Shown here piece by piece: positions 3,400 through 19,317 of a DNA stretch of 64,000 bases. The DNA is from Candidatus Latescibacterota bacterium (GTDB lineage: Bacteria > Latescibacterota > UBA2968), in the NCBI GenBank assembly GCA_965116885.1, contig OZ220741.1, positions 640,001 through 704,000 on the forward strand, read 5' to 3'. A program made the position numbers and the translations under genes. The notes beneath the pieces are model-generated. The model searched no databases. It was not told the DNA's origin and saw only the letters and a program-made list of their open reading frames with translations. Position 1 is the first letter of the stretch, and every line of letters starts with the position of its first letter.

Positions 3400-3496
3400 G
3401 CTTATACAACAAGTCTATGAGATGTTTCCAGCGCCTATAGGAATATCTAATTGAGGATAACGACTGATGTCCTCAACATAACATTAGAAAATTTTA

Positions 3497-3529
3497 AACC
3501 CCTGGAGAGATATGCTCTTCAGGGGTTTC
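3497..3529 (+). terminator. possible intrinsic terminator hairpin after the sulfatase
   Basis: AAACCCCTGGAGAG...CTCTTCAGGGGTTT imperfect stem followed by T-rich sequence. Confidence 0.45.
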
Positions 3530-3659
3530 ATTTGGATGGATTTGGGTTGCAATCTGAACGCGAACATCCCGTGCCAAAACGCGAGGACTATGTATGTGTG
3601 ATCAGATGGTATGCGCATCGCCTTTTTCCGCATTCAGGAAGTACGACTGTTGTACAGCA

Positions 3660-3703
3660 TAAAGGTCTATATATAAACCAATAAGATTATATATAGACCT
3701 TTA
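3660..3703. repeat. perfect 17-bp inverted repeat TAAAGGTCTATATATAA-N10-TTATATATAGACCTTTA
   Basis: Read directly, in the AT-rich intergenic region upstream of the CARF-bEBP gene. Confidence 0.85.
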
Positions 3704-3996
3704 TTGTAGCTCTATAACATAGATTAGAGACGATCTAATTATTGTTGGACTATATATCGCCCAATTTTTTGAAAAATTGTTTGGTAATGTTTATGGTGAC
3801 ATATATATTGTGAACTCTCTCAAAAATAATTGATGATTTATACATACTCCTCCAAAATTTTGTGAATCATACATCAACCACTCAGACCTGTCCCATTAGA
3901 TGCTACGGAGTCTATTACAAACAGTCAGAGATTAAAATTTTAAAAATACTGTTTTAGACTACAAAATTCAATGAAATGACTCAAGAGGATAAAGAT

Positions 3997-5640
3997 ATGC
4001 AACACAAATTGGTCGCTGTAGTCGGCAACACACCACAAGTTATGACAGAAATCTTCTGGGCATTGCGTGTCCAGCACAAAGTGCCCATCGATGAAGTATT
4101 TTTGATAACGACAACAGAAGGACAAAAAACCTGCCAAGAACGCCTTTTGGATGAAGGTCGCTTTGACAAGATGTTGTCGGATTACAAGATCGATCCCAAT
4201 ACTGTCGCGTTCAAGCCCGATCATATCCATGTATTTGAAGATGCTGAAGGCAATTTTTTAGACGACATCCGCACCTCAGAAGATAATCGTCTGGCTCGGG
4301 ACCAACTTTTCCGATGGATTGAAAATTGGACGAAGAATGCCCATGTCGCTTTACACTGCTCGCTCGCAGGTGGACGTAAGTCAATGGGATACTTACTCGG
4401 AGCTGCTATCCAATTTTTTGGTCGGTCACAAGATCGCCTGTATCATGTGCTGGTCACGCCACAAGCAATTGAAACAAATCCCGATTTTTTCTTTCCACCC
4501 GTGCACGAAGCGCAAATCCCCACATCAGACGGACAAAAAATTTCTACTGCTGATGTACGTATTGAATTGGCTGAATTGCCTTATGTATCCGTAAGAGATA
4601 TATCCGCATTTGACGATGAAAACTATGACCTAATTCTACAGAAAACGCAAGCAGAAGTGAGACGTGTTCCACGTCTAAGAGCAGAAAACAAACGGCTGAG
4701 AGAAACATCGGGCAATGCTGGCGGCTTGATCGGAAATAGCTTTGCAATGCAAAAAACCAAAGACCGGATTCGACAAGTTGCTGGTGCAGATGATGCAACC
4801 GTGTTGATTTTGGGTGAAACGGGAACGGGTAAAGAGCGCGCAGTTGCAGCACTACATGAACAGAGTACGAGAAAAAATAAACCATTCATAGCAGTTAACT
4901 GCGGTGCATTTCCAGGTGAACTTTTGGATGTAGAGCTATTCGGTGCGGTTCCAGGTGCTTATACCGGACAAGCCGGACCGCGTGAGGGTGCTTTTCGCGC
5001 AGCTAATGGCGGGACCCTTTATCTTGATGAAATCGGAGAATTATCACATGAAGGGCAGGCGAAGCTGTTGCGCGTATTACAAGAAAAGAAAGTGCGCCCG
5101 GTTGGCAGTGATAAACAAGAGGAAGATGTTGATGTACGCATTGTTGCGGCGACCAATCGCGACTTGAAGGCCAGAGTTCAAGAAAAAGCTTTCCGAGAAG
5201 ACCTGCTGTACCGCCTCAATGTTTGGACCATTGAAATGCCACCGTTGCGAGAACGACGCGAAGATATACCGGAGTTAATCGACCTGTTTTGTGAACAATT
5301 TAATGAAAAATACAAACGCAATGTTGTGGGCTTTGATGCCCCAGCCATAGAAGCTATGTGTCGCTACACCTGGCCGGGCAATGTGCGCGAGCTTGAACAT
5401 GAAGTTGAGCGCATCGTCATTGCTGCCCCACAGAGTGCATTTCGCGTACATAAGGAAGACATAGCCAGGCATATTATTGAATCATCAGATTTAGACACGG
5501 GTAGTGGGACACTCAAAGAGCAAGTGGCGCAGTTTAAGAAGCAGAAGATTCAGGAAATACTGGCGCAAACTCAGGGCAGTGTTAAACGCGCCGCGAATAT
5601 ATTGGGTATTAATGAATCAACGGTGAGCCGAAATCGGTAA
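3997..5640 (+). CDS. NE0113-family CARF domain fused to sigma54-dependent enhancer-binding protein (AAA+ and Fis-type HTH)
   Basis: N-terminus: VAVVGNTPQVMTEIFWAL, DDIRTSEDN, HCSLAGGRKSMG, GRSQDRLYHVLV, FFFP (Cas NE0113-type CARF motifs). C-terminus: Walker A GETGTGKE, ELFG, GAYTGQ (GAFTGA-loop variant), Walker B LYLDEI, RIVAATNRDL, FREDLLYRL, WPGNVREL, HTH AANILGINESTV. RBS GAGGA favours ATG 3997; alternative ATG at 3976. Confidence 0.88.
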   Translation: MQHKLVAVVGNTPQVMTEIFWALRVQHKVPIDEVFLITTTEGQKTCQERLLDEGRFDKMLSDYKIDPNTVAFKPDHIHVFEDAEGNFLDDIRTSEDNRLARDQLFRWIENWTKNAHVALHCSLAGGRKSMGYLLGAAIQFFGRSQDRLYHVLVTPQAIETNPDFFFPPVHEAQIPTSDGQKISTADVRIELAELPYVSVRDISAFDDENYDLILQKTQAEVRRVPRLRAENKRLRETSGNAGGLIGNSFAMQKTKDRIRQVAGADDATVLILGETGTGKERAVAALHEQSTRKNKPFIAVNCGAFPGELLDVELFGAVPGAYTGQAGPREGAFRAANGGTLYLDEIGELSHEGQAKLLRVLQEKKVRPVGSDKQEEDVDVRIVAATNRDLKARVQEKAFREDLLYRLNVWTIEMPPLRERREDIPELIDLFCEQFNEKYKRNVVGFDAPAIEAMCRYTWPGNVRELEHEVERIVIAAPQSAFRVHKEDIARHIIESSDLDTGSGTLKEQVAQFKKQKIQEILAQTQGSVKRAANILGINESTVSRNR

Positions 5641-5726
5641 AGAGTAAAGGATAGAGTGAGGGATCGCGGTCATCTCGCCTGCATGGATTTACAGAGAAAA
5701 TCCCAAAAATATGAGTTATAAAAGGC

Positions 5727-5761
5727 GTGCATTTTTGCCTATCGCACAGGCAAAAATGCCT
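5727..5761. promoter_or_regulatory. putative upstream activator sequence 1: two 14-bp quasi-palindromes GTGCATTTTTGCCT and AGGCAAAAATGCCT, 21 bp apart
   Basis: The first box starts 134 bp upstream of the -24 GG; the same arrangement recurs at 7061-7095. Confidence 0.7.
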
Positions 5762-5807
5762 GTTTGAACATCTCATCGTTCATTTCCTGTTTCAAAAAAA
5801 TATCACA

Positions 5808-5820
5808 CAACCTGTTGTTT
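5808..5820 (-). promoter_or_regulatory. IHF-like site in sigma54 cassette 1
   Basis: Minus strand AAACAACAGGTTG, one mismatch to WATCAANNNNTTR, located between the UAS and the -24/-12 box. Confidence 0.5.
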
Positions 5821-5859
5821 TTTTTGATCTCTGAGGAAATTCGGAGATTTTTTTGTGTT

Positions 5860-5875
5860 TGGCACGCGATTTGCA
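5860..5875 (+). promoter_or_regulatory. sigma54 (-24/-12) promoter upstream of cas6
   Basis: TGGCACGCGATTTGCA is an exact TGGCAC-N5-TTGC consensus (GG-N10-GC). Confidence 0.88.
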
Positions 5876-6053
5876 AATAGAAACTGTCAGAATCAGGATG
5901 GGCAGGATGCAAGGATGATCAGGATACCCCCGACCCCACCCAGGGGGTTAGATACCGCAACACATCCGTCGAGATGACCGGAAGATCCCATTTAGTCATG
6001 CATTTGGGCCTATAGATGGGCGCAGAGATTATCCACTATTCAAGGAGATATTG

Positions 6054-7013
6054 ATGTTTGACCTGAAACTCGCGTATATGCGCCTCCATTTCAAAGCGCG
6101 GGGCCATCTGCGCCTGCCTCCTTATAAAGGCTCCACATTTCGCGGGGCTTTTGGCGTGTCATTTAAGCGCGCGGTCTGTATTGTGCAACACGGCGAATGC
6201 GAGCGGTGTCTGATTCGGGCGCAATGCGTGTATCCATACGTATTTGACACACCAGTAGATAATGCACAGGGCATATTTCGAGGGTATCAAGAGGCACCGC
6301 ATCCCTATCTGATCGAACCCCCACTGGAAACAAAAACCGATTACGCGCCAGGCGACGAATTTGCCATTGGTCTGACCTTGATAGGCCGCGCACTGAATTA
6401 TATGCCCTACTTCATCTATACATTCCAGCGAATGGGAGACACAGGTCTTGGACGCGGACGCGGCAAATGCGATCTCATATCGGGCGAAGCACTACACCCG
6501 GATGGGACGTGGCAGAAGGTTTACGACGGAGCGAGCGAAATGTTGCAACAAGACGTACCCCATTTGACCGCACAGGATCTGATGCACAACGATATAGGAT
6601 CTCGGATTCGCCTCTCATTTGTAACACCTACCCAACTCAAAGCAGACCAAATATTGCAGCGCGGATTGGATTTCCCCGTACTCGTACGCGGGTTATTGCG
6701 GCGGTATTCGGCACTGGCCGCATTTCACGCAGACGGACCGCCAGATATAAATTATGCCGACTATATCTCGGCGGCAGAGAATATTCAAACCACATCCCAC
6801 AATTTGACCTGGCGCACCTGGGAGCGGTATTCAAACCGCAAGAACCGACGCATGAGCGTGAGCGGTTTTACAGGAGATGTGGTCTTTGAAGGCGACATGA
6901 CACAATTTCACCCCCTGCTGGCCCTGGGCGTGCCGATACACGTTGGCAAGTTGACCAGCTTTGGGATGGGGCAATACGCTATAAAAGGAAGAAGGGTGAA
7001 GGGTGAAGGGTGA
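6054..7013 (+). CDS. cas6: CRISPR pre-crRNA processing endoribonuclease Cas6
   Basis: GSTFRGAFG, Cys cluster CIVQHGECERCLIRAQCVY, PHPYLIEPP, C-terminal G-rich loop HVGKLTSFGMGQY; AAGGAG RBS. Confidence 0.9.
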   Translation: MFDLKLAYMRLHFKARGHLRLPPYKGSTFRGAFGVSFKRAVCIVQHGECERCLIRAQCVYPYVFDTPVDNAQGIFRGYQEAPHPYLIEPPLETKTDYAPGDEFAIGLTLIGRALNYMPYFIYTFQRMGDTGLGRGRGKCDLISGEALHPDGTWQKVYDGASEMLQQDVPHLTAQDLMHNDIGSRIRLSFVTPTQLKADQILQRGLDFPVLVRGLLRRYSALAAFHADGPPDINYADYISAAENIQTTSHNLTWRTWERYSNRKNRRMSVSGFTGDVVFEGDMTQFHPLLALGVPIHVGKLTSFGMGQYAIKGRRVKGEG

Positions 7014-7060
7014 AGGCAATAGCATGACCTGTTTTATTCCCAGCAGAAATTGTCAAACAA

Positions 7061-7095
7061 GTGCAAAATTGCACAGAGAACGTGCAGAAATGTAC
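7061..7095. promoter_or_regulatory. putative upstream activator sequence 2: GTGCAAAATTGCAC and GTGCAGAAATGTAC, 21 bp apart
   Basis: Same motif, same 21-bp spacing and same 134-bp distance to the -24 GG as UAS 1; both are followed by TTGAACAT. Confidence 0.7.
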
Positions 7096-7140
7096 GCTTG
7101 AACATGTTGGTGTCAATTTGATTTCAGAAAAAATATCGTA

Positions 7141-7153
7141 TAACATATTGTTT
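7141..7153 (-). promoter_or_regulatory. IHF-like site in sigma54 cassette 2
   Basis: Minus strand AAACAATATGTTA, one mismatch to WATCAANNNNTTR, at the position equivalent to cassette 1. Confidence 0.5.
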
Positions 7154-7193
7154 TCTCATAAATTAAAAAATAAATTCAAATTTTCCTCCATTT

Positions 7194-7209
7194 TGGCACG
7201 CGGATTGCA
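7194..7209 (+). promoter_or_regulatory. sigma54 (-24/-12) promoter upstream of DUF1232/YkvA gene (and possibly the cmr operon)
   Basis: TGGCACGCGGATTGCA is an exact TGGCAC-N5-TTGC consensus. Confidence 0.88.
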
Positions 7210-7271
7210 TAAACAAGAGGTGCTCGCAAAAAAGTTTTTAATCCGCAGTAAAAACCAAATGGAGGAATACC

Positions 7272-7622
7272 ATGAAGAATCGAAACAATCAAGGGTATAG
7301 GAAATATTATTCTCAGGACAGCTTCTGGAAAAAGTTGCTCAAATTCGCACGTACCGCGGGCCGGGAAGTCGTTGAGCATGCCCTATCACTCTACTACACC
7401 GCGCAAGCTCCCGACACACCTGCCTGGGCCAAAACGGTCATCACCGGGGCACTGGGGTACTTTATTCTTCCAGCCGATGCAATTCCCGACCTGATCCCGG
7501 CCGTCGGTTACGGCGATGACCTGGGTGCGCTGGCCGCAGCACTCGCAGCCGTGGCGGCTCATGTCACGCCTGAAATCAAAGCCCGCGCGAAAGAAAAAGC
7601 CGCTGAGTGGTTTGGTGAGTGA
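7272..7622 (+). CDS. YkvA / DUF1232 family small membrane-associated protein
   Basis: GGAGGA RBS; FWKKL, TPAWAK, GALGYFILPADAIPDLIPAVGYGDD family signature. Confidence 0.85.
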   Translation: MKNRNNQGYRKYYSQDSFWKKLLKFARTAGREVVEHALSLYYTAQAPDTPAWAKTVITGALGYFILPADAIPDLIPAVGYGDDLGALAAALAAVAAHVTPEIKARAKEKAAEWFGE

Positions 7623-7882
7623 AGTGTAATCCGCAGATGACGCAAATAAATAAAGAGGGGCTGGATAGACTGGCTGCTGACCGCTAAGAGTGGGAAGGAG
7701 ATGAACCACGTACTCTATTGCGCTATTTTCACAGGGATTGTATCCTGTGCAATTCAGGACATCAAGACCGCGTCCTTTGTTCGGTTTCAGAAAGTGGAGC
7801 GACCCACTGCGGTTATAAGAAACGACGTATAAAGAAATCTATGCAAGGAGACAATACGATTTAGTTCCAAAGGAGAAGCGTA

Positions 7883-8722
7883 ATGAATAGGACAGTGTTG
7901 AATCTTGAAACTGTAACACCAATGTTTTTACATGGTGAGAATAGTCGAAATCTCGAACTTCGACCACCGCCGTTCAAATCACTGATGCGTTATTGGTGGC
8001 GAACTGTGCAGGATTGCGAATGGAAATCGCTTCAGAAGGACGAAGCAAAATTATTTGGTAGCACAGATCGTAAAGCACCATTCTCAATTCGTATTTTAGG
8101 AGAAACGGAACTGGACCGTAGGCGCTATAAACCGTTGCCACATCGAACTGATAATCGTGGTTTTCAGACAGATGCGTATAAAGAGGGACAGTCATTTGAC
8201 CTGTATCTGATTACAAAAAACGGATCAAATACTTCGACTTATGAACAGATTGCAAAACTCGGCTTTTTGCTCGGCGGCGTTGGGAATCGATCACGACGTG
8301 GATTCGGTTCGATTCGTGAAACAAACTGGAATTTCACAGACGTTTCTGATCTACGGCAGGAAGTTTTGAATACTCTAAACGCTGTCGCAGGCACTAATCA
8401 TTTTCAGATGATGGGCCAGATCATTGAATCTAAACTCACTCGTTTTCCAGATTATCCTGTTATTATGTCTATCTATTTTGGCAATCCAACGCCCCAGATT
8501 GACACCCTATTAAGGAAAATCGGACAGGCGACTCATACTCATAAAGATGATGCTTTGGGTTATGCAAAAGGAAGACAACGGCTGGCTTCACCTATTCATG
8601 TTCGTATCCAGAAGATGGGATGGAAATATATTCCAATTGTGACCCAACTTTACTTTCCGAAATTCAAACCAGAGAATTTTGAACAAAAGCAAAAGGATTT
8701 TATTGACGCCATCATCACTTAG
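7883..8722 (+). CDS. cmr1: type III-B RAMP Cmr1
   Basis: LETVTPMFLHG, ELRPPPFKSLMRYWWR, EAKLFGS, LGGVGNRSRRGFGS, RLASPI. Confidence 0.9.
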   Translation: MNRTVLNLETVTPMFLHGENSRNLELRPPPFKSLMRYWWRTVQDCEWKSLQKDEAKLFGSTDRKAPFSIRILGETELDRRRYKPLPHRTDNRGFQTDAYKEGQSFDLYLITKNGSNTSTYEQIAKLGFLLGGVGNRSRRGFGSIRETNWNFTDVSDLRQEVLNTLNAVAGTNHFQMMGQIIESKLTRFPDYPVIMSIYFGNPTPQIDTLLRKIGQATHTHKDDALGYAKGRQRLASPIHVRIQKMGWKYIPIVTQLYFPKFKPENFEQKQKDFIDAIIT

Positions 8723-8732
8723 GAGGCTTTCT

Positions 8733-10619
8733 ATGAGTGGCAACCGGACGAAACGTCTCATGCTCATGTTTACAATTGGTCCTGTGCAATCGTTTATTGA
8801 AGCAGCTCGGAAGACAGAGGACTTGTGGATGGGGAGTTATATTCTGTCTTATCTTATCGCTAAAGCAATGGACAAAGTTCGTGGCGACGATATTGAGCTG
8901 ATATATCCCGCTATTGGAAACCAATCGCCATTTGAATTTTGGAAACAACAAGATTTCGCAACCCCATCTTTTCCAAATCTTTTTTTAGCAATTGGCAACG
9001 GTATTGAGGTTTCTCAGAATGCATTGATTGAACTCGCAAAAGATGCTGAACGTACTATAAAAACCGAATTTGAGCGAATGGCGGAATGTGTGATTGATAA
9101 GGCATTCAGCAACAAGTGGCGTGGTACTTATGTAGAGGAAGTGTTCAAGCGACAAATCTCGGATTTTTTTGATGTCTATTGGGTGATTACCCAAGAAGCA
9201 GAGCAAAATTACGGGGATTGGTACGATCACACCGCAAGCAATCTCGCAGCTATCAAAAATTGCCGAACATTCGCACAGATCCGTGAGTTTGGACGGAAGT
9301 GTTCACTTGATGGAACACGCGAAATTCTCCATTTGAGACAAGACGAAACTGTGCGAGAAGCAATGAAATGGTGGCAGGGCTTTGCTGAACGCGAACCGAA
9401 GTATTGCCGCAGGGAAGAGGCTCTGTGTGCCGTTTCATTAACCAAACGGATGGGAAGGCATTTTCTGGAGACCCAATCGGAATTTTCAGATCATTTTTCT
9501 ATTCAATCTCTGAACTTTCCATCTACATCGGAGATAGCTACAGCGGACTTCAAAGAACAATTCCAACTCAATATTGGGGCCTTAGGCATTTATGGAGATT
9601 TCGTTAAAGAAGTCAAAAAGTTGAGGACATTGGACAACAAACCAGCAGATATTCCAATTATTCAACCGTTACCAAAAATCGGGATGCTCCAGGGGAATAT
9701 TGATGGCGAGTGGCTGTACGAAGAGACTTGGAACGAGTCCTATCTAAGGCGTTACTACAACATTGATGCAAAAAACCAGAATAAACAGATTCAGACTTGT
9801 AAGAGATTGCACCATAAACTTGTCCAATGTCTTGGTGAACCGGGGCGATATTATGCTGCCATTGCACTTGATGGCGATAACATGGGCGAGAAGATTCGGG
9901 AAGCTAAATGCAAGGAAGACCATGAAAAACGCAGCAATGATCTGATTCAATATACGAAAGATGCTCGTCGGATTACTGAACAAGAGCATCTCGGAAAACT
10001 GACCTATGCGGGTGGTGACGACATCCTTGCACTCGCAAACCTCAAAGACCTCTTACCTATACTGAAAGGCTTGCGCGAAACATTTCCCAATTTCACGACT
10101 GCTTCGGTAGGTGTATGTATTGCCCACAATAAAGTTCCACTGGGAGAGGTGCTTCAGCAAGCGCGTCAAATGGAGAAAGTAGCGAAAAATGAAGGTGAAC
10201 GGAATGCTCTTGGAATCACGCTGTTTAAGCACTCCGGAAATATCAGCCAGACAGTAACAAAGTGGACGCCCGGCGATTTGGATGTGCTCAATATTAGTGA
10301 GGAGTTACTCAAATTATTGAGCGATAATGAAATTTCTAAGCGTTTTTTGTACGCTTTCCGTGAGACATTTGCCAAATTAATTGAAGACGAAGATGATTTC
10401 GGGGAACTGGGCCGTCACCTTATTCAAGCTGAGTTTGAACGGATTATGGAACGGGCACATTCGAACAAAAAAACAGAACTCAAAGAAAGTCAACAAACCA
10501 TCCATACACTTACTCAACTCATCTATCATATCCAGCCTTTCTCTCACTTTCTCGGATATTTAGAAATTATCAATTTCATTGCGAGGATAAAAAATGAAAC
10601 TGTTTCTCCAACCCAATGA
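8733..10619 (+). CDS. cas10: type III-B Cas10/Cmr2, Palm cyclase motifs intact, no HD domain
   Basis: ATG 8733 after AGGAGG; starts at FTIGPVQSFIEAARKTEDLWMGSYILS; FPSTSEIA, YYAAIALDGDNMG, YAGGDD, SVGVCIAH. Confidence 0.93.
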   Translation: MSGNRTKRLMLMFTIGPVQSFIEAARKTEDLWMGSYILSYLIAKAMDKVRGDDIELIYPAIGNQSPFEFWKQQDFATPSFPNLFLAIGNGIEVSQNALIELAKDAERTIKTEFERMAECVIDKAFSNKWRGTYVEEVFKRQISDFFDVYWVITQEAEQNYGDWYDHTASNLAAIKNCRTFAQIREFGRKCSLDGTREILHLRQDETVREAMKWWQGFAEREPKYCRREEALCAVSLTKRMGRHFLETQSEFSDHFSIQSLNFPSTSEIATADFKEQFQLNIGALGIYGDFVKEVKKLRTLDNKPADIPIIQPLPKIGMLQGNIDGEWLYEETWNESYLRRYYNIDAKNQNKQIQTCKRLHHKLVQCLGEPGRYYAAIALDGDNMGEKIREAKCKEDHEKRSNDLIQYTKDARRITEQEHLGKLTYAGGDDILALANLKDLLPILKGLRETFPNFTTASVGVCIAHNKVPLGEVLQQARQMEKVAKNEGERNALGITLFKHSGNISQTVTKWTPGDLDVLNISEELLKLLSDNEISKRFLYAFRETFAKLIEDEDDFGELGRHLIQAEFERIMERAHSNKKTELKESQQTIHTLTQLIYHIQPFSHFLGYLEIINFIARIKNETVSPTQ

Positions 10620-11763
10620 TACCTTCTTTTTTCGCGACGGGCGTCCTTTTACAAAAGGCGAACAGTCTGAAGGTCATTCAATTTTTCCACCCCTTCCCTC
10701 GACAGTTCTCGGTGCGTTGCGTACTGCATACATCGCTGAATTTGGTGATCTATCGCTTTTCTATTCCGGCGGGATGCGAGAGACGATTGGTACGCCAGAA
10801 TCACTGGACAATGCTATTCAAGTGCGCGGTGTTTTTCTTGCAAATAGGCGAAGCAATCAGATGGGTCGAATGGAAATATTTTTTCCAGTGCCACTTGATC
10901 TGGTATATAAAAAAATAGAAAAGAGAGATGATCATACCCTGCTTCATTTACTGACGCCGCAATCTAAAAATTTTGCGTCGAACGGGATAATCAGCACGCC
11001 TCTTACATGGCTAAATTCCGAGTCCATTGATTTCGATGCAGATGGATTGTTACGACTGGGGGCAATCACACGATACTTACAAGGAAACAGTCAGAACCTG
11101 CTTCTTACAAACCGAGCAACATTGGTTGAGCGCGAAACCAAAACGGGTATCGCGCGGGATAGACACACTTTGTCGTCCGAAGAACACATGTTGTATCGTA
11201 TTGATATGTCGAGATTTAAAAATAGAGATGGCAATTACGGCTTTGTGGTAGAATATGAATGCCCTATGAATTTGCCACAAAAAGGACTTTTGAAATTAGG
11301 TGGAGAAGGCAAAGGTTTTGTCTATCAGCACAGCAACTATGATATTGATCCACTGTCCAGCCGTCTTGAGGCAGTCAAACGAGCCATCCAATCAACAAAC
11401 AGATTCAAGCTATATTTTGCAACGCCGACCATATTCCGGAACGGATGGTTACCTTCATGGTTGAATAGCGATACGCTTTCGGGTGAATACCCACTGGAGA
11501 ATACAGCACCAATTTCACTCAAATTAATCACCGCCGCGGTTGGTAAACCTGTTCCTGTTGGCGGATGGGACATGGCAAAAGGTGAGGCAAAACCCAACTA
11601 TCGCGCAGTGCCTGCTGGCAGCGTCTATTACTTTGAATTGATGGATAAAAATCGAATTGATGATTTAATCGCCGCTTTTCACTACCAAAACATTAGCGAG
11701 GAGCGTTCTGAGGAGGGATTTGGACTTACTCTTATCGGTGTCGCACAGGAGGGAAATGCATGA
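10594..11763 (+). CDS. cmr3: type III-B RAMP Cmr3
   Basis: PNDTFFFRDGRPF, FPPLPSTVLGALRT, KLGGEGK, GGWDM, AVPAGSVYYF, EGFG. Confidence 0.92.
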   Translation: MKLFLQPNDTFFFRDGRPFTKGEQSEGHSIFPPLPSTVLGALRTAYIAEFGDLSLFYSGGMRETIGTPESLDNAIQVRGVFLANRRSNQMGRMEIFFPVPLDLVYKKIEKRDDHTLLHLLTPQSKNFASNGIISTPLTWLNSESIDFDADGLLRLGAITRYLQGNSQNLLLTNRATLVERETKTGIARDRHTLSSEEHMLYRIDMSRFKNRDGNYGFVVEYECPMNLPQKGLLKLGGEGKGFVYQHSNYDIDPLSSRLEAVKRAIQSTNRFKLYFATPTIFRNGWLPSWLNSDTLSGEYPLENTAPISLKLITAAVGKPVPVGGWDMAKGEAKPNYRAVPAGSVYYFELMDKNRIDDLIAAFHYQNISEERSEEGFGLTLIGVAQEGNA

Positions 11764-13010
11764 AGACGCTTATAACACCAGTCGGCACATCGCTCTTTAC
11801 AAACTATCTTGATGAGAATGGGGACAGTGCCTTTAGACACAATTATGAAACAATCAGAAGATCTCCCGCTTCGGAATGGGATGAGTATGATTATGAAATT
11901 GAGGATCTAAAAACGTCCAGTCTTGAATTTATTAAAAAAGAAAAGGAATCCGCGTCTGCGGAACTTCAGAGTATCGCTAAAATTCAAGAAAAATTCAAAG
12001 AGGACCTCGAAGTTCGTCTATTTGCCTCAGACACGATTGCTTCGCGATTGGCTGCGAAGATTTTAGCGGATGATAAAGTGGCTTCAGTTTTAGGCGATAA
12101 TATCTCTGTCACATTCGATACACAAACAGATGTGATCAAGGGGCTTCAGGTTGAAGATCCCAAAGTCTTTTCGCAGGAAGGCCTGTCCAACTTGATTCAA
12201 AAGATCAATTCGGCCAGCAATAATGCCGGGGGCTATCAGGAACTTGCTATCAATATCACCGGAGGGTTCAAAGCCACCTTGCCATATCTGACGATTTTGG
12301 CACAACTCAATCGTGTTCCACTTTACTACACATTTGAAGATACTGAAGCACTCATCTCGATTCCACAAGCACCGTTAGTTATTGATTGGGGTTTGATTGA
12401 ACGCTATTCCGACGTTCTCAGAAAAATTGATGAGGGAATAGGAAATTGGTCGGCATTCAGAAACCAACATTACCAGGCTGTTCAAGATTTGGAGGCATTC
12501 ATTGAAGTTGTTGACGAAATGGCATTTCTTTCCCCTATTGGCCAAATTTTCTGGAATCACTATCAAAGATACTTTATCGTCGAATTGCCAAGAGGAAGTT
12601 ATTTCAAATATGACTTCAGAGAACGCGGCTTGATTGATCAATCCATTGAAGAGCTTTATAGACGGTTAGACACCGTTCTAAGACCAGATCTTCTCGATCT
12701 GGTGAAGTGCTATAAACGCATTCGCGATTTGGGACATAATGATGACTTAAATCATACTGGACAAATCCCAAATCCTACGAGAAGTCCGAATCGAGAAATG
12801 TTCATTTTCAAATCGACAAATGAAGAGCAGATACGGTTGCTATACACCTTTAAGGTGAATGAACGAGAGATCACTCGGCTTACAATATTTGATCTTCTTT
12901 GTCGAGATTTTAACCACAGTACTTATTTTGATACATGGAAACGCAAATTTGGTCGTCAAAATTTTCCTGATATTGACTTTGTCACACGCACATTTGAAAT
13001 TCCTTCATAG
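11760..13010 (+). CDS. APE2256/SSO1393-family CARF protein with C-terminal probable RelE-like domain (Cami1-like effector or ring nuclease)
   Basis: TPVGTSLFTN, SAELQS, FASDT, INITGGFKA, LYYTFE CARF motifs; LSPIGQIFW wHTH-like linker; about 150-aa C-terminal domain with FIFKS, IRLLY and NHSTY. The RelE call is tentative. Confidence 0.75.
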   Translation: MKTLITPVGTSLFTNYLDENGDSAFRHNYETIRRSPASEWDEYDYEIEDLKTSSLEFIKKEKESASAELQSIAKIQEKFKEDLEVRLFASDTIASRLAAKILADDKVASVLGDNISVTFDTQTDVIKGLQVEDPKVFSQEGLSNLIQKINSASNNAGGYQELAINITGGFKATLPYLTILAQLNRVPLYYTFEDTEALISIPQAPLVIDWGLIERYSDVLRKIDEGIGNWSAFRNQHYQAVQDLEAFIEVVDEMAFLSPIGQIFWNHYQRYFIVELPRGSYFKYDFRERGLIDQSIEELYRRLDTVLRPDLLDLVKCYKRIRDLGHNDDLNHTGQIPNPTRSPNREMFIFKSTNEEQIRLLYTFKVNEREITRLTIFDLLCRDFNHSTYFDTWKRKFGRQNFPDIDFVTRTFEIPS

Positions 13011-13032
13011 GTTTTAACAAGGAGAAACCAAA

Positions 13033-13995
13033 ATGTTCAAACAAGCTAAACCCCTCTTTCTTATCGTCGAAACCCCACTCCACGCTGGTAGCGGTAATGA
13101 CTTGGGCATTGTTGATCTCCCGATCCAGCGGGAAAAGCATACGGATTATCCAAAAATCGAAGCATCTGGACTAAAGGGCAGCATACGTGAAATTTTTGAT
13201 GCTCAAGGAAATAAATCTGAAATCGATCTTGTATTCGGCCCCGAACAAGGCGACTTACACGCTGGTGCTTTGGGATTTACGGATGCACGTCTCTTGCTTT
13301 TCCCAGTCAAGTCGGTCAAAAACGTGTTTGCCTGGGTAACCTGTCCCGCAGTTTTAGAGCGTTTCAAACATGACCTTGCCATCTGTCAGCCGAATATTGA
13401 GTTTATTGATGATCTCCCCGATAGTGAGGCGGTGACGACAGAGAGCGAACTAATTATTAAGGATAATAAAATCGTGCTGGAAGAATACACATTCGCGGTT
13501 AGCCAAAACAAAGAATGTGATGCTATTGCAGATTGGATTATCGAAAACGTTCTGCCAAAGGATCCGGGCTACAATTATTGGCGCGATAAGATGAAACGAG
13601 ATATGGTCGTGTTGACCGATGATGATTTCCGTGATTTCGTAACGCTTTCGACAGAAGTCATTGCCCGCACCAAAATCGACAGTGAAACCGGTACCGTTGC
13701 AAAAGGTGCGCTGTGGTACGAGGAATACTTGCCGACTGACTCTATTCTCTATTCGCTTGCCTTGACCACACCCATCTTTAAGGAAAATGACGCCGATAAA
13801 GGTATTTTCCAATTGACCGATCAGGATAAAGAAGAGAAACGCGATGAGTCGGAAAAGGTAATGGACTTCTTTGTGGATGGATTGCCGAATGTCATTCAGA
13901 TCGGCGGCAATGCAACCGTGGGCAAGGGTATAGTTCGTACACACGTTTATCAAAATGGAGGAGAAAACCATGCCACAAACTCCGACAATGCGTAA
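13033..13995 (+). CDS. cmr4: type III-B RAMP Cmr4 (target RNase)
   Basis: ETPLHAGSG, IVDLPIQRE (catalytic Asp present), DARLLLFPVKS, LWYEEYLP, QIGGNATVGKG. Confidence 0.95.
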   Translation: MFKQAKPLFLIVETPLHAGSGNDLGIVDLPIQREKHTDYPKIEASGLKGSIREIFDAQGNKSEIDLVFGPEQGDLHAGALGFTDARLLLFPVKSVKNVFAWVTCPAVLERFKHDLAICQPNIEFIDDLPDSEAVTTESELIIKDNKIVLEEYTFAVSQNKECDAIADWIIENVLPKDPGYNYWRDKMKRDMVVLTDDDFRDFVTLSTEVIARTKIDSETGTVAKGALWYEEYLPTDSILYSLALTTPIFKENDADKGIFQLTDQDKEEKRDESEKVMDFFVDGLPNVIQIGGNATVGKGIVRTHVYQNGGENHATNSDNA

Positions 13996-14368
13996 GGGAA
14001 TTGAACAAGGGCGTGCCAAGTACGCTTTTGAGGCAGTGAGCAGTGTTAATGGTGACAGATTGAAGAAAGAGTATAAATCCGCGGCAAAGAAACTCCCCGT
14101 CTTAATAAAAACGAATGGACTTGGGCAGTCTTTGGCATTCATTAAGAAAAGGAATAACGGGCACGACAGGCTATACGAACAAGTTGGAAACTGGCTCCAA
14201 GCCGTAGATACCAAACAGTTGGTTTCGACTGGCGAACTTGTGGAACAAGTCATCGAACTCAAATCACCCGACTATCGGCAAGTTACTGTCGAAACGCTCG
14301 CACTACTCAATTGGATTCGCCGATTTGTCGATGGACTCATGGATGATGTGGAGGAGAATGATGCTTAA
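13970..14368 (+). CDS. cmr5: type III-B small subunit Cmr5
   Basis: EQGRAKYAF, YKSAAKKLPVLIKTNGLGQSLAF, WIRRF; ATG 13970 after GGAGGAG. Confidence 0.92.
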   Translation: MPQTPTMRKGIEQGRAKYAFEAVSSVNGDRLKKEYKSAAKKLPVLIKTNGLGQSLAFIKKRNNGHDRLYEQVGNWLQAVDTKQLVSTGELVEQVIELKSPDYRQVTVETLALLNWIRRFVDGLMDDVEENDA

Positions 14369-15443
14369 TTTCCATCCATTGGATACGAGGGAACTGGTTC
14401 GCTCAAATAATCAGATTGATAATTTCGCGTTGCGTTACCGACATTCCTTGCAGGTTACTCGCGATGGTGAGAAATACAAATTTCAACTTTCCGATCCGAC
14501 GTTTAGTAAATCTTATGATGAATTGATTGAGCAGTTGCGAGAACGTCAAACAGAGCAATTTCTCCAATTTGTTATGCAGGATATCAGGCTTTACTGCGTT
14601 GATGCAACAGTTGATTGGCGACTAATTGTTGGCCTCGGCAGTGAGCATGTTCAAGAGACAAACATGACACTTCATCATATCTACGGCATTCCGTACATTC
14701 CCGGAAGTGCCGTGAAAGGCGTGTTGCGGCATTGGTGGGTGCAAGAGGATTTCGACAACAACGAAGACAAAGCACTGAAAGATAAAAATTTTCTCGCTCT
14801 CTTTGGAAGTCAAAAACGGCGCGGAGAAGTGCAATTTCTTGACGCCTATCCTGAGCAAGTCCATTTTGCGAAAGATATTATGAATCCACACTATCCCGAA
14901 TATTACAGTGGTAGCGCACCACCAACAGATTCTCAAAATCCAAGACCTATCAATTTTTTAACTGTTGAGAAGACCGCCTTTCGGTTCGCTTTCTTAGCGA
15001 AGAAGCAGAAACTTCTCGATAAACTCAAGGCACGATTTGAAGATGTATTAGAGCTGAAGGGCATCGGTGCGAAAACAGCGGTTGGCTATGGGTATTTCCG
15101 AAATTTTGAAGATCAGACCGACAAAATTATTGACACATTCAAGCGTCAACAACAAGCTGAACGGGAAGAAGCGGAAAGACAGCAAGAAGCCGAGAGATTG
15201 GCAAGTCTTTCTCCTGTCGAACAAATTGTCGAAGAATTGAATGGTCTCGCTGACAATTCTGTGGATGAAGCGCGTGTTACCGATATCTACAACATAGAAC
15301 TCCTATCTCTTGAAGGAGATGATCAACAGATGGTCGCACAGGCATTGAAAGCTTATTGGGAACGTATCAATAAGTGGAGTGGCGGTTCGAGGAAACAGAG
15401 AACAAAGGTGCAAAAGGTTAAGTCAATTTTGGGAGAGAGTTGA
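14358..15443 (+). CDS. cmr6: type III-B RAMP Cmr6
   Basis: RLIVGLG, HHIYGIPYIPGSAVKGVLR, FLDAYP, DIMNPHY, PINFL, GIGAKTAVGYG; start 14358 or 14361. Confidence 0.93.
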   Translation: MMLNFHPLDTRELVRSNNQIDNFALRYRHSLQVTRDGEKYKFQLSDPTFSKSYDELIEQLRERQTEQFLQFVMQDIRLYCVDATVDWRLIVGLGSEHVQETNMTLHHIYGIPYIPGSAVKGVLRHWWVQEDFDNNEDKALKDKNFLALFGSQKRRGEVQFLDAYPEQVHFAKDIMNPHYPEYYSGSAPPTDSQNPRPINFLTVEKTAFRFAFLAKKQKLLDKLKARFEDVLELKGIGAKTAVGYGYFRNFEDQTDKIIDTFKRQQQAEREEAERQQEAERLASLSPVEQIVEELNGLADNSVDEARVTDIYNIELLSLEGDDQQMVAQALKAYWERINKWSGGSRKQRTKVQKVKSILGES

Positions 15444-16179
15444 CTATAGTAATCTGGCAAAAATCTTTGGTGAACGGGTGGGTGAAACAGGAGCAGACTT
15501 TTGTGCGATCAACGCCACAGGTGGCTATAAAGCCCAGATCGCCATTGCCGTTCTGATGGGCCAGGCACTCGACATTCCAGTGTATTACAAACATGAACGC
15601 TTTGATGCCATTATCCCGTTTCCACCTATGCCAGTGGCACTCGATTTTTCAATCTGGCAGCGGGCCAGTGGCATGTTTATGGTACTCGGCAAAGGCGACA
15701 TTATTCCGTGGGAGCAGTATCGTGAGGATTGGGATGAACGATTTGAGCCACTGGTCAATCGCGAGGAAATTGATGGCGAGGACTATCTGGAACTCTCGGC
15801 GACGGGACAGATCTTTCACGAGACCTTCCGAACCCGTTTTCAGCAGATAAAGGCCCACAGTCTTCCGCGACCAGCAACAGATAATGAGAAGTAAGCCCCC
15901 AATCTGGGCAATCACGGATACGGACAAGCTCAGACTCCCATTTTGCGGTTCCTGCAAAAGCTTACTGATGAGGTCCCTTACATCCGCTTTTGCCACTCAA
16001 CGTATTGGAACCCGGACCTGCCTGAATCAACCCGGTTTCGGTCATCGGGCGGAGAAGTCCAGGGCATATACTCCAATGGAACCTGGTGCGTGAAGTTTAA
16101 GGTGCATACAACATCAGATGATCAGGAGGTATTACCCGGCATTGTGGCCGATCTCAACGACTGGATAGAGAAAGGTTAA
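15444..16179 (+). pseudogene. decayed second APE2256-family CARF gene (5' truncated, in-frame TAA at 15892-15894)
   Basis: Has INATGGYKAQ and VYYKHERF but lacks the N-terminal VGTS/SAE motifs and a proper start; ORFs 15379..15894 and 15943..16179 are in the same frame, separated by a single TAA. Confidence 0.8.
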
Positions 16180-16460
16180 AAGAGAGTTTTCAGTTTGATT
16201 GAAGCCAGTGGATGCGACCCAGAGGCGTCGATCAATGTCATGCTGGCAGCTTGAGCGTGTAGCGAACAACGCGCGTGAGGATTATAGGCATTTCCTCAAG
16301 TTCTGGTGGGTCGCAAATTTCTAACTTTTTGCAGGAGTGTGTATTATGAACAAAGAATCGAAAGCAATTTTTCATTTTTGGGAGGATTTTGTATGTCAAA
16401 ATGGCCTGAGTCGCAAACCGCCTTGTAACTATCTGTAACAGAGGGAATAACACAGACGGT
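16180..16460 (+). promoter_or_regulatory. CRISPR leader
   Basis: AT-rich non-coding stretch directly 5' of the first repeat with repeated GTCGCAAA motifs; the repeat orientation ending in ATTGAAAC puts the leader on this side. Confidence 0.65.
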
Positions 16461-18877
16461 ATCAGGAAGGATTACCCGACTACTGGGGTATTGAAACTTC
16501 TTTGACAAACTGCTTGCCATAGGCATCCACATTGTCATCAGGAAGGATTACCCGACTACTGGGGTATTGAAACATAACCCTTACCTTTCCTGTCTTGTGC
16601 TCCGTGGATATATCATCAGGAAGGATTACCCGACTACTGGGGTATTGAAACTTGGTCGCGCGCACGTATCCCTAAGGGCTTATTAAACACATCAGGAAGG
16701 ATTACCCGACTACTGGGGTATTGAAACTTGTTTGTGATGATCATATAGATGCGCTTGGCCTCTTCAAAATCAGGAAGGATTACCCGACTACTGGGGTATT
16801 GAAACAGGTCTGAGTTGACTTCTTTGAGCTGGTTTGTCATGTTTCGATCAGGAAGGATTACCCGACTACTGGGGTATTGAAACTCATACGTCTCAAGGAT
16901 ACCATGGTCACAGAAATATTCTGCCCATCAGGAAGGATTACCCGACTACTGGGGTATTGAAACTTTACTTGCGAAGTAGCCATTGCCAAATCTCCTTATG
17001 TGATCAGGAAGGATTACCCGACTACTGGGGTATTGAAACCGTTCAATCGAAACCTCATCATCATATCCGTACATTACCATCAGGAAGGATTACCTGACTA
17101 CTGGGGTATTGAAACAATTTTGCGTCTTGCAAGGTCTTGTATGTGCCTATCAATTCATCAGGAAGGATTACCCGACTACTGGGGTATTGAAACCAACGTC
17201 CCAAATTCGGTTTCTGATTTCCAGGCATCAGGAAGGATTACCCGACTACTGGGGTATTGAAACTAATTGGGAAAGTAATGACGATCTGGTGCATAGAAAC
17301 AATCAGGAAGGATTACCCGACTACTGGGGTATTGAAACTTAACGCGGCGTGTAAAAGGATTGTTCTTTTTTCGATTAGCCATTTTTATCAGGAAGGATTA
17401 CCCGACTAATGGGGTATTGAAACACAATAGCGATTGCCGCTTGCAACTCCTGTGCCGTGTATATCAGGAAGGATTACCCGACTAATGGGGTATTGAAACT
17501 CGTTATGGTTGGGCTGCTCCCGAATAGAGGCTTCCGCATCATGAAGGATTACCTGACTATTGGGGTATTGAAACATCATATGAGCGTACATCATCGGAAC
17601 CTGGGGCGGCGGATTGATCATGAAGGGTTACCCAACTACTGGGGTATTGAAACTTGTAGATTTTATCAAACCAGTTGCGCTGAGGATCCATCAATCAGGC
17701 AGGACTACCCGATTATTGAGGTATTGAAACCCGATTCACAGGTTCTTCCAATACGCTTCCGCACCGTGAACCAGGAAGGGTTACCTGCTTACTGGGGTAT
17801 TGAAACACATATGGACCACGGTCATTGACACGAACAATCACCGCTTATCAGGAAGAATTACTCGCCTATTGGGGTATTGAAACATCGCGTGAAGCGTGCC
17901 AAGGCCCACGCATCCGTCCATCAGGCAGGAGTACCCGATTACTGGGGTATTGAAACTCATTTTCTGTTTTCTCTTGAATGAAGTTACCATCGGACGTAAT
18001 CAGGAAGGACTATCTGCTTATTGGGATATTGAAACGTGCCGGTCATGACCATGCCTGCCAAGCAGACATGACATTCAGGAAGGATTACTCGCTTACTGGG
18101 GTATTGAAACTTATCAAGTGCGCTATCACAATCGTCGAACACAATCAAGATCAGGCAGGACTACCCGACTAATGGGGTATTGAAACGTGTACGACATCTC
18201 GCCAATCAGGTCGGGACCGATCAGCCGTCAGGCAGGACTACCCGATTACTGGGGTATTGAAACCCGTCAACACTCTTCTTGGCATACAGCGTTGCCATAC
18301 CTTGAATCAGGAAGGATTACCCGACTAATGGGGGATTGAAATCCAGGGTAGTTTTTGTGTTTCTCGATGTCCACACCAAATCAGGAAGGATTACCTGCTT
18401 ACTGGGGTATTGAAACGCCATTTCAATTGGGTACGTGTCAAACTTGATAAAACCCATCAGGAAGGATTACCCGACTAATGGGGTATTGAAACTTACCTCC
18501 GTGTGAAATTGGTATCGGTCTGTCTCGTCCCATCAGGAAGGATTACCCGACTAATGGGGTATTGAAACGCCTGTTGCGCTATGATTGCGTTCAGGGATTC
18601 GATCTTGTCAATCAGGAAGGATTACCCGACTAATGGGGTATTGAAACCGATCTACGCCGGGGCGAGAATTGATATTTGTCTGGATGAATCAGGAAGGATT
18701 ACCCGACTAATGGGGTATTGAAACTTGTCAAGTGCACGTTTCACGGTCATGTGTGAACATTGTATCAGGAAGGATTACCCGACTAATGGGGTATTGAAAC
18801 TTGACGGCATCGTACAACGCCTTCTGGATTGTGTCCAGATATCAGGAAGGATTACCCGACTAATGGGGTATTGGAAC
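16461..18877 (+). CRISPR. CRISPR array: 32 repeats of 37 nt, consensus ATCAGGAAGGATTACCCGACTA(C/A)TGGGGTATTGAAAC, 31 spacers of about 33-48 nt
   Basis: Counted by hand: first repeat 16461-16497, last (ending TTGGAAC) 18841-18877; internal stem TACCC/GGGTA; 3' ATTGAAAC handle typical of Cas6-processed repeats. Confidence 0.98.
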
Positions 18878-18921
18878 GCGTGATATGACGGGGAAGCGGA
18901 GATATATGTTGAGGAGACAGA

Positions 18922-19074
18922 ATGTTAACTCTAATACTAATCGGTTTTGCTATTGTCTGCTTTTATGCGTTGTTCTGGACGAGAGACAACAACGCAAAAG
19001 ATAATGATGACTTTATGGTTATACCAGAAAGGGAAAGAGACGACGATGATGAAATTCAAGATGACGGATACTGA
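18922..19074 (+). CDS. 50-aa small protein with an N-terminal hydrophobic helix and acidic tail
   Basis: GAGGAG RBS then MLTLILIGFAIVCFYALFWTRDNNAKDNDDFMVIPERERDDDDEIQDDGY*; below the ORF-track length cutoff. Confidence 0.5.
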   Translation: MLTLILIGFAIVCFYALFWTRDNNAKDNDDFMVIPERERDDDDEIQDDGY

Positions 19075-19080
19075 GCAAAA

Positions 19081-19145
19081 CCTTCTGGATCGCGGCTCAA
19101 CCATGTCCCTGCATGGTGTTGAGCAGGGAACCATGCCGCGATGAC
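19081..19145. repeat. palindromic intergenic repeat CCTTCTGGATCGCGGC...CATGCCGCGATGAC (shorter copy at about 20484-20519)
   Basis: The two copies share both ends. Confidence 0.65.
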
Positions 19146-19317
19146 AACGCCCAACCAGCCCCCAATTATACCATTGTCGCATGGATAACAGGACCGAGAT
19201 GGAGATAAGTTGACGACAGACCAAAAAATCGCTTTTTTTCACGCTTGATTGCGCCTCCGTGGAATAGAGCCAGAATTTAACAACCCGTTGATGGAGCGTA
19301 TCAGCGGGGAATTTTTT

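Follow-up and report, generated by a model that had tools for sequence, protein, structure and literature searches.

Locus organization

We analyzed 64,000 nt of DNA from a Candidatus Latescibacterota bacterium (GCA_965116885.1, contig OZ220741.1, positions 640,001 to 704,000, forward strand). This stretch is the window, and coordinates refer to it unless a related locus is named. It contains a type III-B CRISPR locus headed by a gene for a predicted transcriptional regulator, in which a CARF domain of the NE0113 (CARF5) type is fused to a sigma-54 activator, and two candidate sigma-54 promoters, P1 and P2, lie downstream. The window was annotated with an open reading frame (ORF) listing and with Pfam, NCBIfam and PADLOC scans. 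The regulator gene, cas6, a DUF1232 gene and the cmr1-6 block are all co-directional on the + strand:

3997..5640, +, regulator, CARF5(NE0113)-AAA+(sigma-54 activator)-HTH_8, 547 aa (Pfam, NCBIfam, PADLOC, AF2, Foldseek)
5860..5874, +, sigma-54 -24/-12 box P1, TGGCACGCGATTTGC, intergenic, 177 nt before cas6, conserved in relatives
6051..7013, +, cas6, ATG at 6054 after AAGGAG (Pfam CRISPR_Cas6 1.3e-18; PADLOC Cas6 2.6e-99)
7194..7208, +, sigma-54 -24/-12 box P2, TGGCACGCGGATTGC, intergenic, 64 nt before the DUF1232 gene
7272..7622, +, DUF1232 (YkvA-like) small hydrophobic protein, first gene after P2 (Pfam 3.2e-12)
7883..8722, +, cmr1 (TIGR01894 1.1e-13)
8679..10619, +, cas10/cmr2, likely start ATG 8730 (Pfam, NCBIfam)
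10594..11763, +, cmr3 (Cas_Cmr3 4.4e-63)
11760..13010, +, CARF7-RelE ancillary effector, Cami1-like, CARF of APE2256 type (PADLOC CARF7--CARF_RelE 1.3e-102, profile positions 1-340 of 356)
13033..13995, +, cmr4 (TIGR02580 3.1e-73)
13955..14368, +, cmr5 (Cas_Cmr5 1.1e-34)
14238..15443, +, cmr6, ORF as listed (TIGR01898 4.5e-48, residues 126-287)

The regulator ORF is open from 3976; homologues and a 100%-identical database protein (P0002) begin at 3997. The tblastn alignment of Cas10 with its counterpart in the related locus L014 begins at residue 17, and the true start of cmr6 is probably later than listed. The type III-B set is complete, with NCBIfam equivalogs for all six cmr genes, cas6 and a CRISPR array.

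An earlier reading made from the sequence alone (the original prediction) had described a Cas10 with an intact GGDD motif and no HD nuclease. We read the motifs YAGGDDIL (at ORF residue 445) and ALDGDNMG, so GGDD is intact and the protein is predicted to be cyclase-competent; there is no Pfam HD domain and no HD dipeptide within the first 120 residues. Residues 52-270 of the CARF7-RelE protein match PDB 8phb/8phj (APE2256 family, 406 aa; 1.1e-14), which we take to be Cami1. The DUF1232 protein has no PADLOC match, and a literature search for DUF1232 together with CRISPR turned up only an unrelated paper.

Domain architecture of the regulator

Pfam places Cas_NE0113 (2.7e-37), Sigma54_activat (PF00158, 1.1e-62, matched across the full profile 1-168), AAA_lid_14 and HTH_8 (4.6e-06) on the regulator, and none of its 9 Pfam hits at E<=0.01 is an RtcR-type CARF family. 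The NCBIfam RtcR model NF038308 scores 306.6 bits against a cut-off of 650 and covers residues 229-523 only. In PADLOC, CARF5--CARF matches residues 1-202 (2.3e-72; positions 1-199 of a 351-position profile), and residues 227-545 correspond to positions 152-473 of 481 in RtcR_PspF2--CARF_AAA_HTH (2.1e-103), the profile closest to this part of the protein and one whose CARF region (positions 1-151) is unmatched. The split match points to an RtcR_PspF2 AAA-HTH (helix-turn-helix) body in which CARF5 replaces the RtcR-type CARF. No full-length CARF5-AAA-HTH profile was matched in PADLOC, where profiles are named after the CARF classification. The three collections agree on the proposed fusion of Cas_NE0113, Sigma54_activat and HTH_8 with a CARF that is not of the RtcR type.

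Across 60 aligned full-length homologues, the Walker A residues G273, G276, G278 and K279, the Walker B residues D344 and E345, and R400 and R406 (arginine fingers) are invariant. In the full-length AF2 model (predicted local distance difference test score, pLDDT, 81.1), a long helix (210-237) connects the CARF domain to the AAA+ core, which is followed by the HTH. By Foldseek the AAA+ model superposes on FleQ, ZraR, NtrC1, LuxO and FlrC, with a TM score up to 0.94, a root-mean-square deviation of 1.3 A and 48% identity. We predict that the gene encodes a bacterial enhancer-binding protein whose AAA+ sigma-54 activator core is intact and whose HTH is of the Fis type.

The sensor scores 174.1 bits with TIGR02584 cas_NE0113 (cut-off 80.65) and 129 bits with PF09623 (cut-off 23). 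A CARF-only model built from 81 sequences (pLDDT 94.6, predicted TM score 0.91) has a Rossmann-like CARF fold. Its best PDB matches (E 3e-07 to 3e-06, TM 0.5-0.7) are Sis0455 and Sso2081, ring nucleases for cyclic tetra-adenylate (cA4), and the CARF of Cad1 in its apo, cA4 and cyclic hexa-adenylate (cA6) forms; Can2, Csm6, Card1 and Cam1 follow. Sequence profiles find weak PDB relatives only (Cad1 E 0.06, Sis0455 E 0.44). The regulator keeps the ten residues that are invariant in 81 fused and unfused CARF5 proteins (E18, T38, T39, G42, D90, G125, G126, R127, D146 and H150). The loop after strand 1 reads G-x-T/S-P-Q (G10 in 80/81, T/S12 in 78/81, P13 in 80/81), and the loop after strand 4 reads G-G-R-K (G125, G126 and R127 in 81/81, K128 in 79/81). 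On these profile and residue matches, the domain is a canonical CARF5 (NE0113/Csx14), not RtcR-type.

The original prediction remarked that CARF domains of this kind are annotated as ring nucleases, and that is indeed the NCBIfam label of TIGR02584. The Ser/Thr and Lys positions behind the ring-nuclease prediction made by others are kept, so the domain may also degrade cyclic oligoadenylate (cOA) and thereby reset the switch.

Promoters P1 and P2

Perfect TGGCAC-N5-TTGC boxes occur three times in the window against 0.25 expected, a count of three being reached in 1 of 100 shuffles. Two of them, at 5860 and 7194, stand where they had been proposed, before cas6 and before the ykvA(DUF1232)-cmr operon. 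The third, at 63649, we regard as a chance match because it lies inside an ORF (63415-63999), and a box with one mismatch at 36192 (- strand) is also inside a coding ORF. The P1 and P2 regions are 74% identical over about 260 nt and carry further elements upstream of the boxes:

5727-5740 and 5748-5761, +, variant enhancer (upstream activating sequence) palindromes of P1, GTGCATTTTTGCCT and AGGCAAAAATGCCT, centred about -126 and -105 from the box
5764..5825, +, conserved P1 spacer, TTGAACAT and the A/T-rich element AAAAAAATATCACACAACCTGTTGTTTT, with columns invariant across the 17 promoters aligned below
5826..5856, +, intrinsic-terminator-like hairpin, 10-bp stem and 4-nt loop, then seven T
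7061-7074 and 7082-7095, +, enhancer palindromes of P2, GTGCAAAATTGCAC and GTGCAGAAATGTAC, centred -126 and -105

The P1 palindromes match the consensus sites of the other promoters in spacing, and they exceed the limit of one mismatch used in the site count below. Between the enhancer sites and the -24 box (5764-5825 and 7098-7160) the shared element reads TTGAACAT ... AAAAAATATC.. A.AAC.T.TTG.TTT. Our guess is that its A/T-rich part is the site of a DNA-bending protein; it does not fit the IHF consensus, WATCAANNNNTTR.

The hairpin before P1 has a free energy of -11.2 kcal/mol (z -3.15), and none of 200 shuffles was equally stable. It reads as a terminator of the regulator's own transcript. 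The gap between the DUF1232 gene and cmr1 shows neither a terminator-like site nor a good sigma-70-like match on the + strand, and cmr1 to cmr6 follow one another closely, so P2 probably drives the whole effector operon. We also looked for autoregulation: there is no enhancer palindrome and no sigma-54 box upstream of the regulator gene, where only weak sigma-70-like matches occur (3769-3809). The CRISPR leader (15895-16460) has no sigma-54 box at up to one mismatch.

Homologues and related loci

A search with the CARF part of the regulator returned 883 proteins. Among the 120 matches listed, 102 carry both Cas_NE0113 and Sigma54_activat; the rest have NE0113 without the fusion, are about 360-400 aa long and share about 40% identity. 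A second search, among 1.84 billion representatives at 50% identity, gave 2,304 matches at E<=1e-10. At least six of the 150 matches listed are fusions (P0103, P0100, P0063, P0105, P0188 and P0255), four long ones (P0127, P0149, P0163 and P0204) have the CARF domain only, and the remaining 140 are shorter than 450 aa and were not domain-scanned. With so few fusions among the matches listed, the fusion appears to be a small minority of the NE0113 family. There is a second fused lineage of 12 clusters led by P0188 (P0188 and P0270-P0280), of which one member is named 'ring nuclease Csm6 [Candidatus Kryptonium sp.]' by NCBI. An ESM Atlas search with the CARF part returned only NE0113 clusters, with scores below 0.9, and nothing new.

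We scanned species-representative genomes with a CARF-only alignment and obtained 17 loci (L001-L017): 15 from Latescibacterota metagenome-assembled genomes (MAGs), one from a KSB1 MAG and one weak Vibrio match. Their annotation combined tblastn with the window proteins, Pfam (97 ORFs) and PADLOC (selected ORFs). The fusion is present in 12 of them (L001-L010, L012 and L014), with cas6 adjoining in 12/12. L001 and L005 end too early to assess the effector module. Of the ten others, nine have a type III module with cas10 downstream on the same strand, which bears out the expected co-occurrence of regulator and cas10.

The original prediction gave a type III-B setting, and this applies to the window and to L014 but not beyond them, since other loci have III-A modules or one of two III-D-like forms. 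L003 and L012 have a III-A module, with an HD-bearing Csm1, Csm2, RAMP proteins and a Csm4 C-terminal domain. The first III-D-like form combines a short Cas10 with a Csx10-type Cas5 (L006, L007 and L009; PADLOC covered L006). The second combines a short Cas10d with a multi-Cas7 protein that has an N-terminal cold-shock domain (L002, L008 and L010; PADLOC covered L002). These multi-Cas7 proteins are 845-875 aa long (L002 12346-14964, L008 13088-15715, L010 13968-16505), and beside the short Cas10d they may represent an unusual III-D-like effector form. The component common to the four module types is a GGDD Cas10: the motif is intact in 10/10 Cas10 proteins, that of the window included, and HD is found in the two III-A loci only.

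The regulator and cas6, usually with DUF1232, are constant and the effector module varies between loci. Eight of the 10 assessable loci contain DUF1232 (74-97% identity); there, as in the window, it is the first gene after a promoter, and within the block only cas6 is more conserved. L003 has a 37-nt repeat identical to that of the window and a cas6 that is 90% identical. Parts of the regulator also appear to have been exchanged: in group B (L006-L010), identity to the window is 40-45% for AAA+ and 58-64% for CARF, yet 83-95% for DUF1232 and for cas6 (L006, L007, L009 and L010).

The KSB1 locus (L011 7105-14153) has an unfused CARF5 protein of 410 aa divergent from a 453-aa RtcR_PspF2-type AAA-HTH activator, in a type III locus with a Card1-like gene. 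A TGGCAT-N5-TTGC box follows the activator, and no GGDD was found in the Cas10 of this locus. By gene content, L011 looks like a split version of the fusion.

Mobile and defense genes also occur near the module: an IS605 OrfB/TnpB gene (L001 6464-7570), an AccI-type restriction enzyme with a methylase (L003 1979-4568), and an IS4/5 transposase between DUF1232 and cas10 (L009 13882-14748). In L010, four CRISPR repeats are interleaved with DUF6883/DUF4926 genes (8013-8851).

Conservation of the promoters

The 17 loci (about 330 kb, both strands) contain 15 perfect boxes, all on the strand of the regulator and all located either 170-400 nt past its stop codon or before DUF1232. At least one occurs in 11/11 loci with a complete fusion and downstream DNA, in line with the expectation of sigma-54 boxes near homologues. 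The loci without a perfect box (L005, L011, L013, L015, L016 and L017) have no complete fusion or no downstream DNA. With the two of the window there are 17 promoters: eight before cas6, eight before DUF1232 and one, in L004, before an FGE-sulfatase gene.

Alignment of the 17 promoters extends over their full length and takes in the enhancer palindromes, TTGAACAT, the A/T-rich element, in which many columns are invariant, and an extended TTTGGCACGC...TTGCATA core. Where a promoter directly follows the regulator gene, the terminator hairpin is kept, in some cases in a weaker form. Upstream of the 17 boxes, 4,250 bp hold 32 GTGCA-N4-TGCAC sites with at most one mismatch, versus 9 in the remaining 386,609 bp. 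Their centers are fixed at -105/-106 and -126, and five loci have an extra pair at -175/-195. Tandem enhancer sites followed by a box form the classic layout of an enhancer-dependent promoter, and we consider it very likely that the regulator drives these promoters. The conserved enhancer sites were not part of the original prediction, nor was the L004 promoter before non-CRISPR genes; both are added here.

The 3′ end of cas6 in the window (6991-7016) consists of 3.7 copies of a GAAGGGT repeat, and a similar G/A-rich repeat is found in the homologous end of cas6 that precedes the P2 promoters in L009 and L014.

Proposed signaling circuit

We propose that a basal Cmr complex would recognize invader RNA and that the Palm domain of Cas10 (GGDD) would make cOA, probably cA4. 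The cOA would bind the CARF dimers of the regulator and free the AAA+ domains, as in RtcR. The regulator could then form an ATPase ring at the enhancer sites and open the sigma-54 closed complex. This would induce cas6, the DUF1232 membrane protein, the Cmr complex and the RelE-type RNase and give a positive-feedback amplifier, which ring-nuclease activity of the CARF could reset.

The arrangement itself is real and non-random, and activation by cOA is the best-supported interpretation of it. The related loci strengthen the case, and each computational check suggested with the original prediction gave the expected outcome. We give the chain as a whole, from cOA in to activation out with positive feedback, a moderate probability.

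cOA is the expected ligand because a GGDD Cas10 is common to all four module types, because this CARF clade otherwise occurs as unfused proteins of type III loci and in Cad1, and because the CARF fold and pocket residues are conserved. Our best guess is cA4, given the companion CARF7-RelE protein: the Cami1 family is cA4-activated, as were 84% of known effectors in a 2024 survey (PMC11229360). That the CARF holds the ATPase off until ligand binds is suggested by analogy with RtcR, in which CARF removal gives constitutive activity and the ligand drives oligomerization and activation (PMC7790460).

Several observations weigh against this circuit. The sigma-54-contacting loop of the regulator is GAYTGQ, not GAFTGA, and the 60 homologues vary here (GAYTGQ 12, GAFTGA 9, GTYTGQ 8, GAYTGL 7, GAFTDA 7, others 17). 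The loop Thr is kept in at least 90% of them, and an F-to-Y change in the GAFTGA loop may be tolerated. No rpoN gene was found among the ORFs of the 64-kb window in the Pfam scan. If the whole effector operon depends on the activated regulator, the Cmr complex must have some basal source, and no good sigma-70-like match was found for one on the + strand between DUF1232 and cmr1. Nor is cas6 a universal sigma-54 target, as it precedes the regulator in L002, L004, L005, L008 and L012; the proposal that cas6 is under a sigma-54 promoter stands for the window and fails in these five loci. The 12 fusion loci all come from one phylum and are not fully independent.

L004 is a further difficulty. It has the regulator, cas6 and a promoter, but no cas10 was found in its 20.6 kb. 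In the region 11945-20387 the cassette is followed by genes for an FGE-sulfatase, an ankyrin-repeat protein (PADLOC PDC-M72A), a double FGE-sulfatase, a Ser/Thr kinase (mad6/PD-T4-6-like), a DUF4407 protein and an FHA protein, which may be a non-CRISPR defense set under the same regulator.

A broader reading goes beyond the circuit, and taken jointly its parts are possible but doubtful. The regulator and its promoter cassette or cassettes, usually with cas6 and DUF1232, might form a portable module for sigma-54 induction by cOA. Placed before at least four type III effector modules and the non-CRISPR gene set of L004, it could make type III immunity an inducible, self-amplifying and probably bistable circuit. 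The small DUF1232 membrane protein might then be a transcriptionally induced effector of a new kind.

Alternative explanations

The alternative that survives best is negative feedback, in which the regulator is on by default and keeps the type III genes expressed until cOA turns it off, or in which the CARF is above all a ring nuclease, so that expression and signaling are damped after the alarm. Start-up requires a basal effector complex, and this alternative stays alive because no separate promoter was found for the effector operon, a problem that it solves. It also accords with the NCBIfam family name, with the prediction of Csx14 as a ring nuclease (PMC8284326), and with the two dedicated ring nucleases among the best structural matches of the CARF. 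RtcR, the one studied protein of the same architecture, works the other way, with an inhibiting CARF and an activating ligand (PMC7790460), and a costly ATP-dependent sigma-54 system that is permanently on would be unusual. We consider negative feedback unlikely, though not strongly so.

Alternatively, the CARF may sense a signal that does not come from Cas10, either RNA ends with 2′,3′-cyclic phosphate (left by Cas6, Cmr4 or the RelE-type RNase) or another defense nucleotide. The sensor differs in type from that of RtcR, whose models match the AAA-HTH part only, and its clade is found unfused in type III loci and is shared with the cA4/cA6-binding Cad1. R127 and K128 after strand 4 are kept, and the RtcR family is mostly without such basic residues (PMC4012209); nine of the ten assessable loci also have a GGDD Cas10. 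These points make another ligand unlikely, despite the L004 regulator without cas10 nearby, the binding of tRNA halves with a cyclic phosphate end by RtcR (PMC7790460), and the prediction that RtcR-like CARF activators control CoCoNuT and restriction-modification (R-M) genes in this way (PMC11090510, PMC4012209).

It is improbable that sensor and activator are uncoupled, with a constitutive or otherwise controlled AAA+-HTH and a CARF that is merely a fused ring nuclease or cOA sponge. The exchange of AAA+ in evolution (40-45% identity in group B against 58-64% for CARF) indicates some modularity. However, the fusion, with the long connecting helix (210-237 in the model), is kept in two AAA+ lineages and in the second lineage that contains Kryptonium, and the N-terminal domains of enhancer-binding proteins are usually their switches. 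Random boxes in a coincidental neighborhood are extremely improbable, even though the box at 63649 is indeed random, since chance is already contradicted by the 15/15 perfect boxes of related loci at the same place and by enhancer sites at fixed distances.

Comparison with known systems

Among the closest known systems is RtcR, which shares the CARF-AAA+-HTH architecture, a sigma-54 promoter beside the gene, and a CARF that inhibits until ligand binds (PMC7790460). The original prediction of a new system was in this respect overstated, and the regulator is better described as a variant of the CARF-regulator theme. RtcR differs in that it regulates rtcBA RNA repair and has an RtcR-type CARF responding to tRNA halves with cyclic phosphate, whereas the window combines CARF5 with type III neighbors and cOA as the expected ligand. 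rtcB and rtcA do not adjoin the regulator of the window, whose neighbors are cas6, DUF1232 and cmr genes. The predicted RtcR-like activators of R-M and CoCoNuT systems are likewise CARF-gated sigma-54 activators heading defense operons, but they have an RtcR-type CARF and are described as not CRISPR-linked (PMC4012209, PMC11090510).

Csa3 is a cA4-binding transcription factor with a CARF and a winged HTH that up-regulates arrays and cas genes, which is taken as positive feedback (PMC8284326, PMC9704534). A 2022 review names it as the only characterized non-nuclease CARF effector (PMC9704534). Unlike the regulator of the window, which has AAA+ between CARF and a Fis-type HTH, Csa3 simply binds DNA and has neither AAA+ nor sigma-54 dependence; it is mostly archaeal and linked to type I-A.

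The CalpL-CalpT-CalpS cascade also carries a type III cOA signal to transcription by way of an alternative sigma factor (PMC11229360), in that case an ECF sigma factor released by the proteolytic action of a SAVED-Lon protein. In the window, by contrast, a single protein would couple cOA to sigma-54, and the target promoters are visible in the locus. In Myxococcus xanthus, the CRISPR-associated operon MXAN7280 has a sigma-54 promoter that depends on the enhancer-binding protein Nla28 (PMC9765219). Nla28 is different in being a starvation-response regulator that is encoded elsewhere, has no CARF and has no cOA link.

The sensor has relatives with other outputs. The unfused NE0113/Csx14 (CARF5) proteins of type III loci have the same CARF at about 40% identity, with all family-invariant residues kept, and a C-terminal region of ~150 residues that AAA+ and HTH_8 replace in the window protein. 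In 2014 NE0113 was listed among CARF families that lack an effector domain, with direct regulation of transcription as a possible role (PMC4012209), and NE0113/Csx14 proteins were later predicted to be ring nucleases (PMC8284326). Cad1 has the closest solved CARF by sequence profile (E 0.06), is among the best by fold, and is annotated as CARF5--CARF_ADA in PADLOC. According to PDB entry titles it binds cA4 and cA6 and forms hexamers, but its output is an adenosine deaminase, not a transcription activator.

We found no paper on NE0113/CARF5 fused to a sigma-54 activator, as the original prediction had supposed, and an earlier listing in supplementary tables is possible. The excerpts of a 2018 catalogue of type III accessory genes show no such cluster (PMC6546367). 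A 2024 survey of type III systems deliberately set transcription factors aside, so the class has likely gone unnoticed (PMC11229360).

If correct, the proposed circuit would give bacteria a one-protein route from cOA to transcription and place CRISPR effector genes under the control of their own alarm signal. Known type III cOA outputs are mostly cell-damaging enzymes (nucleases, proteases, deaminases and pores), and the transcriptional outputs of this signaling are, to our knowledge, Csa3 and the CalpL/T/S cascade. The circuit lends itself unusually well to testing, since a stretch of 4 kb holds the sensor, its enhancer sites, the promoters and the target genes, all of them conserved in a dozen species. 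Very low background is typical of sigma-54 promoters, and the parts could serve as a cOA-responsive gene switch with this property.

Other features of the window

Downstream of cmr6 are a degraded gene and the CRISPR array:

15379-15894 and 15943-16179, +, CARF7-DUF2103 pseudogene remnant in two fragments (PADLOC profile positions 120-255 and 280-352 of 353)
16461..18877, +, CRISPR array, 32 repeats of 37 nt ending ATTGAAAC, last repeat degenerate

The stretch 15379-16179, with which the range of the original prediction ends, is no working gene and holds these two fragments. The N-terminal ~120 profile positions are gone, and there is a break near profile position 255-280. The remnant is 96% identical to the C-terminal (3′) part of an intact 374-aa gene in L003 (14116-15240), one of the III-A loci. 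The presence of a remnant of an L003-type CARF-DUF2103 gene fits a module swap in which III-B replaced III-A.

The first 12 repeats of the array have the variant …ACTACTGGGG… and most later repeats have …ACTAATGGGG…, with degenerate repeats at about 17.5-18.4 kb. The two variants and the degenerate stretch suggest two joined arrays or an old inner part. No cas1 or cas2 was found in the Pfam ORF scan of the 64-kb window, and an Rfam scan of 3400-19400 gave no family.

A gene with a HEPN domain and an MNT-type nucleotidyltransferase gene adjoin at 59863-60607 (-), the usual layout of a HEPN/MNT toxin-antitoxin pair, which they may form.

The locus is flanked by sulfatase, DMFA2_C and glycosyltransferase genes. 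L013 has the same sulfatase and glycosyltransferase flanks and no CRISPR locus. About 150 nt at the upstream edge (3913-4070, made up of 85 nt before the regulator gene and its first ~23 codons) recur elsewhere at 81-88% identity (L013 9925-10077; L015 9916-10069 and 17412-17490; L016 9916-10069; L001 1224-1368; L006 1285-1363). The copies adjoin DMFA2_C paralogues, both in genomes without the CRISPR block and as second copies beside it, and they look like deletion scars or the recombination junction of a variable island.

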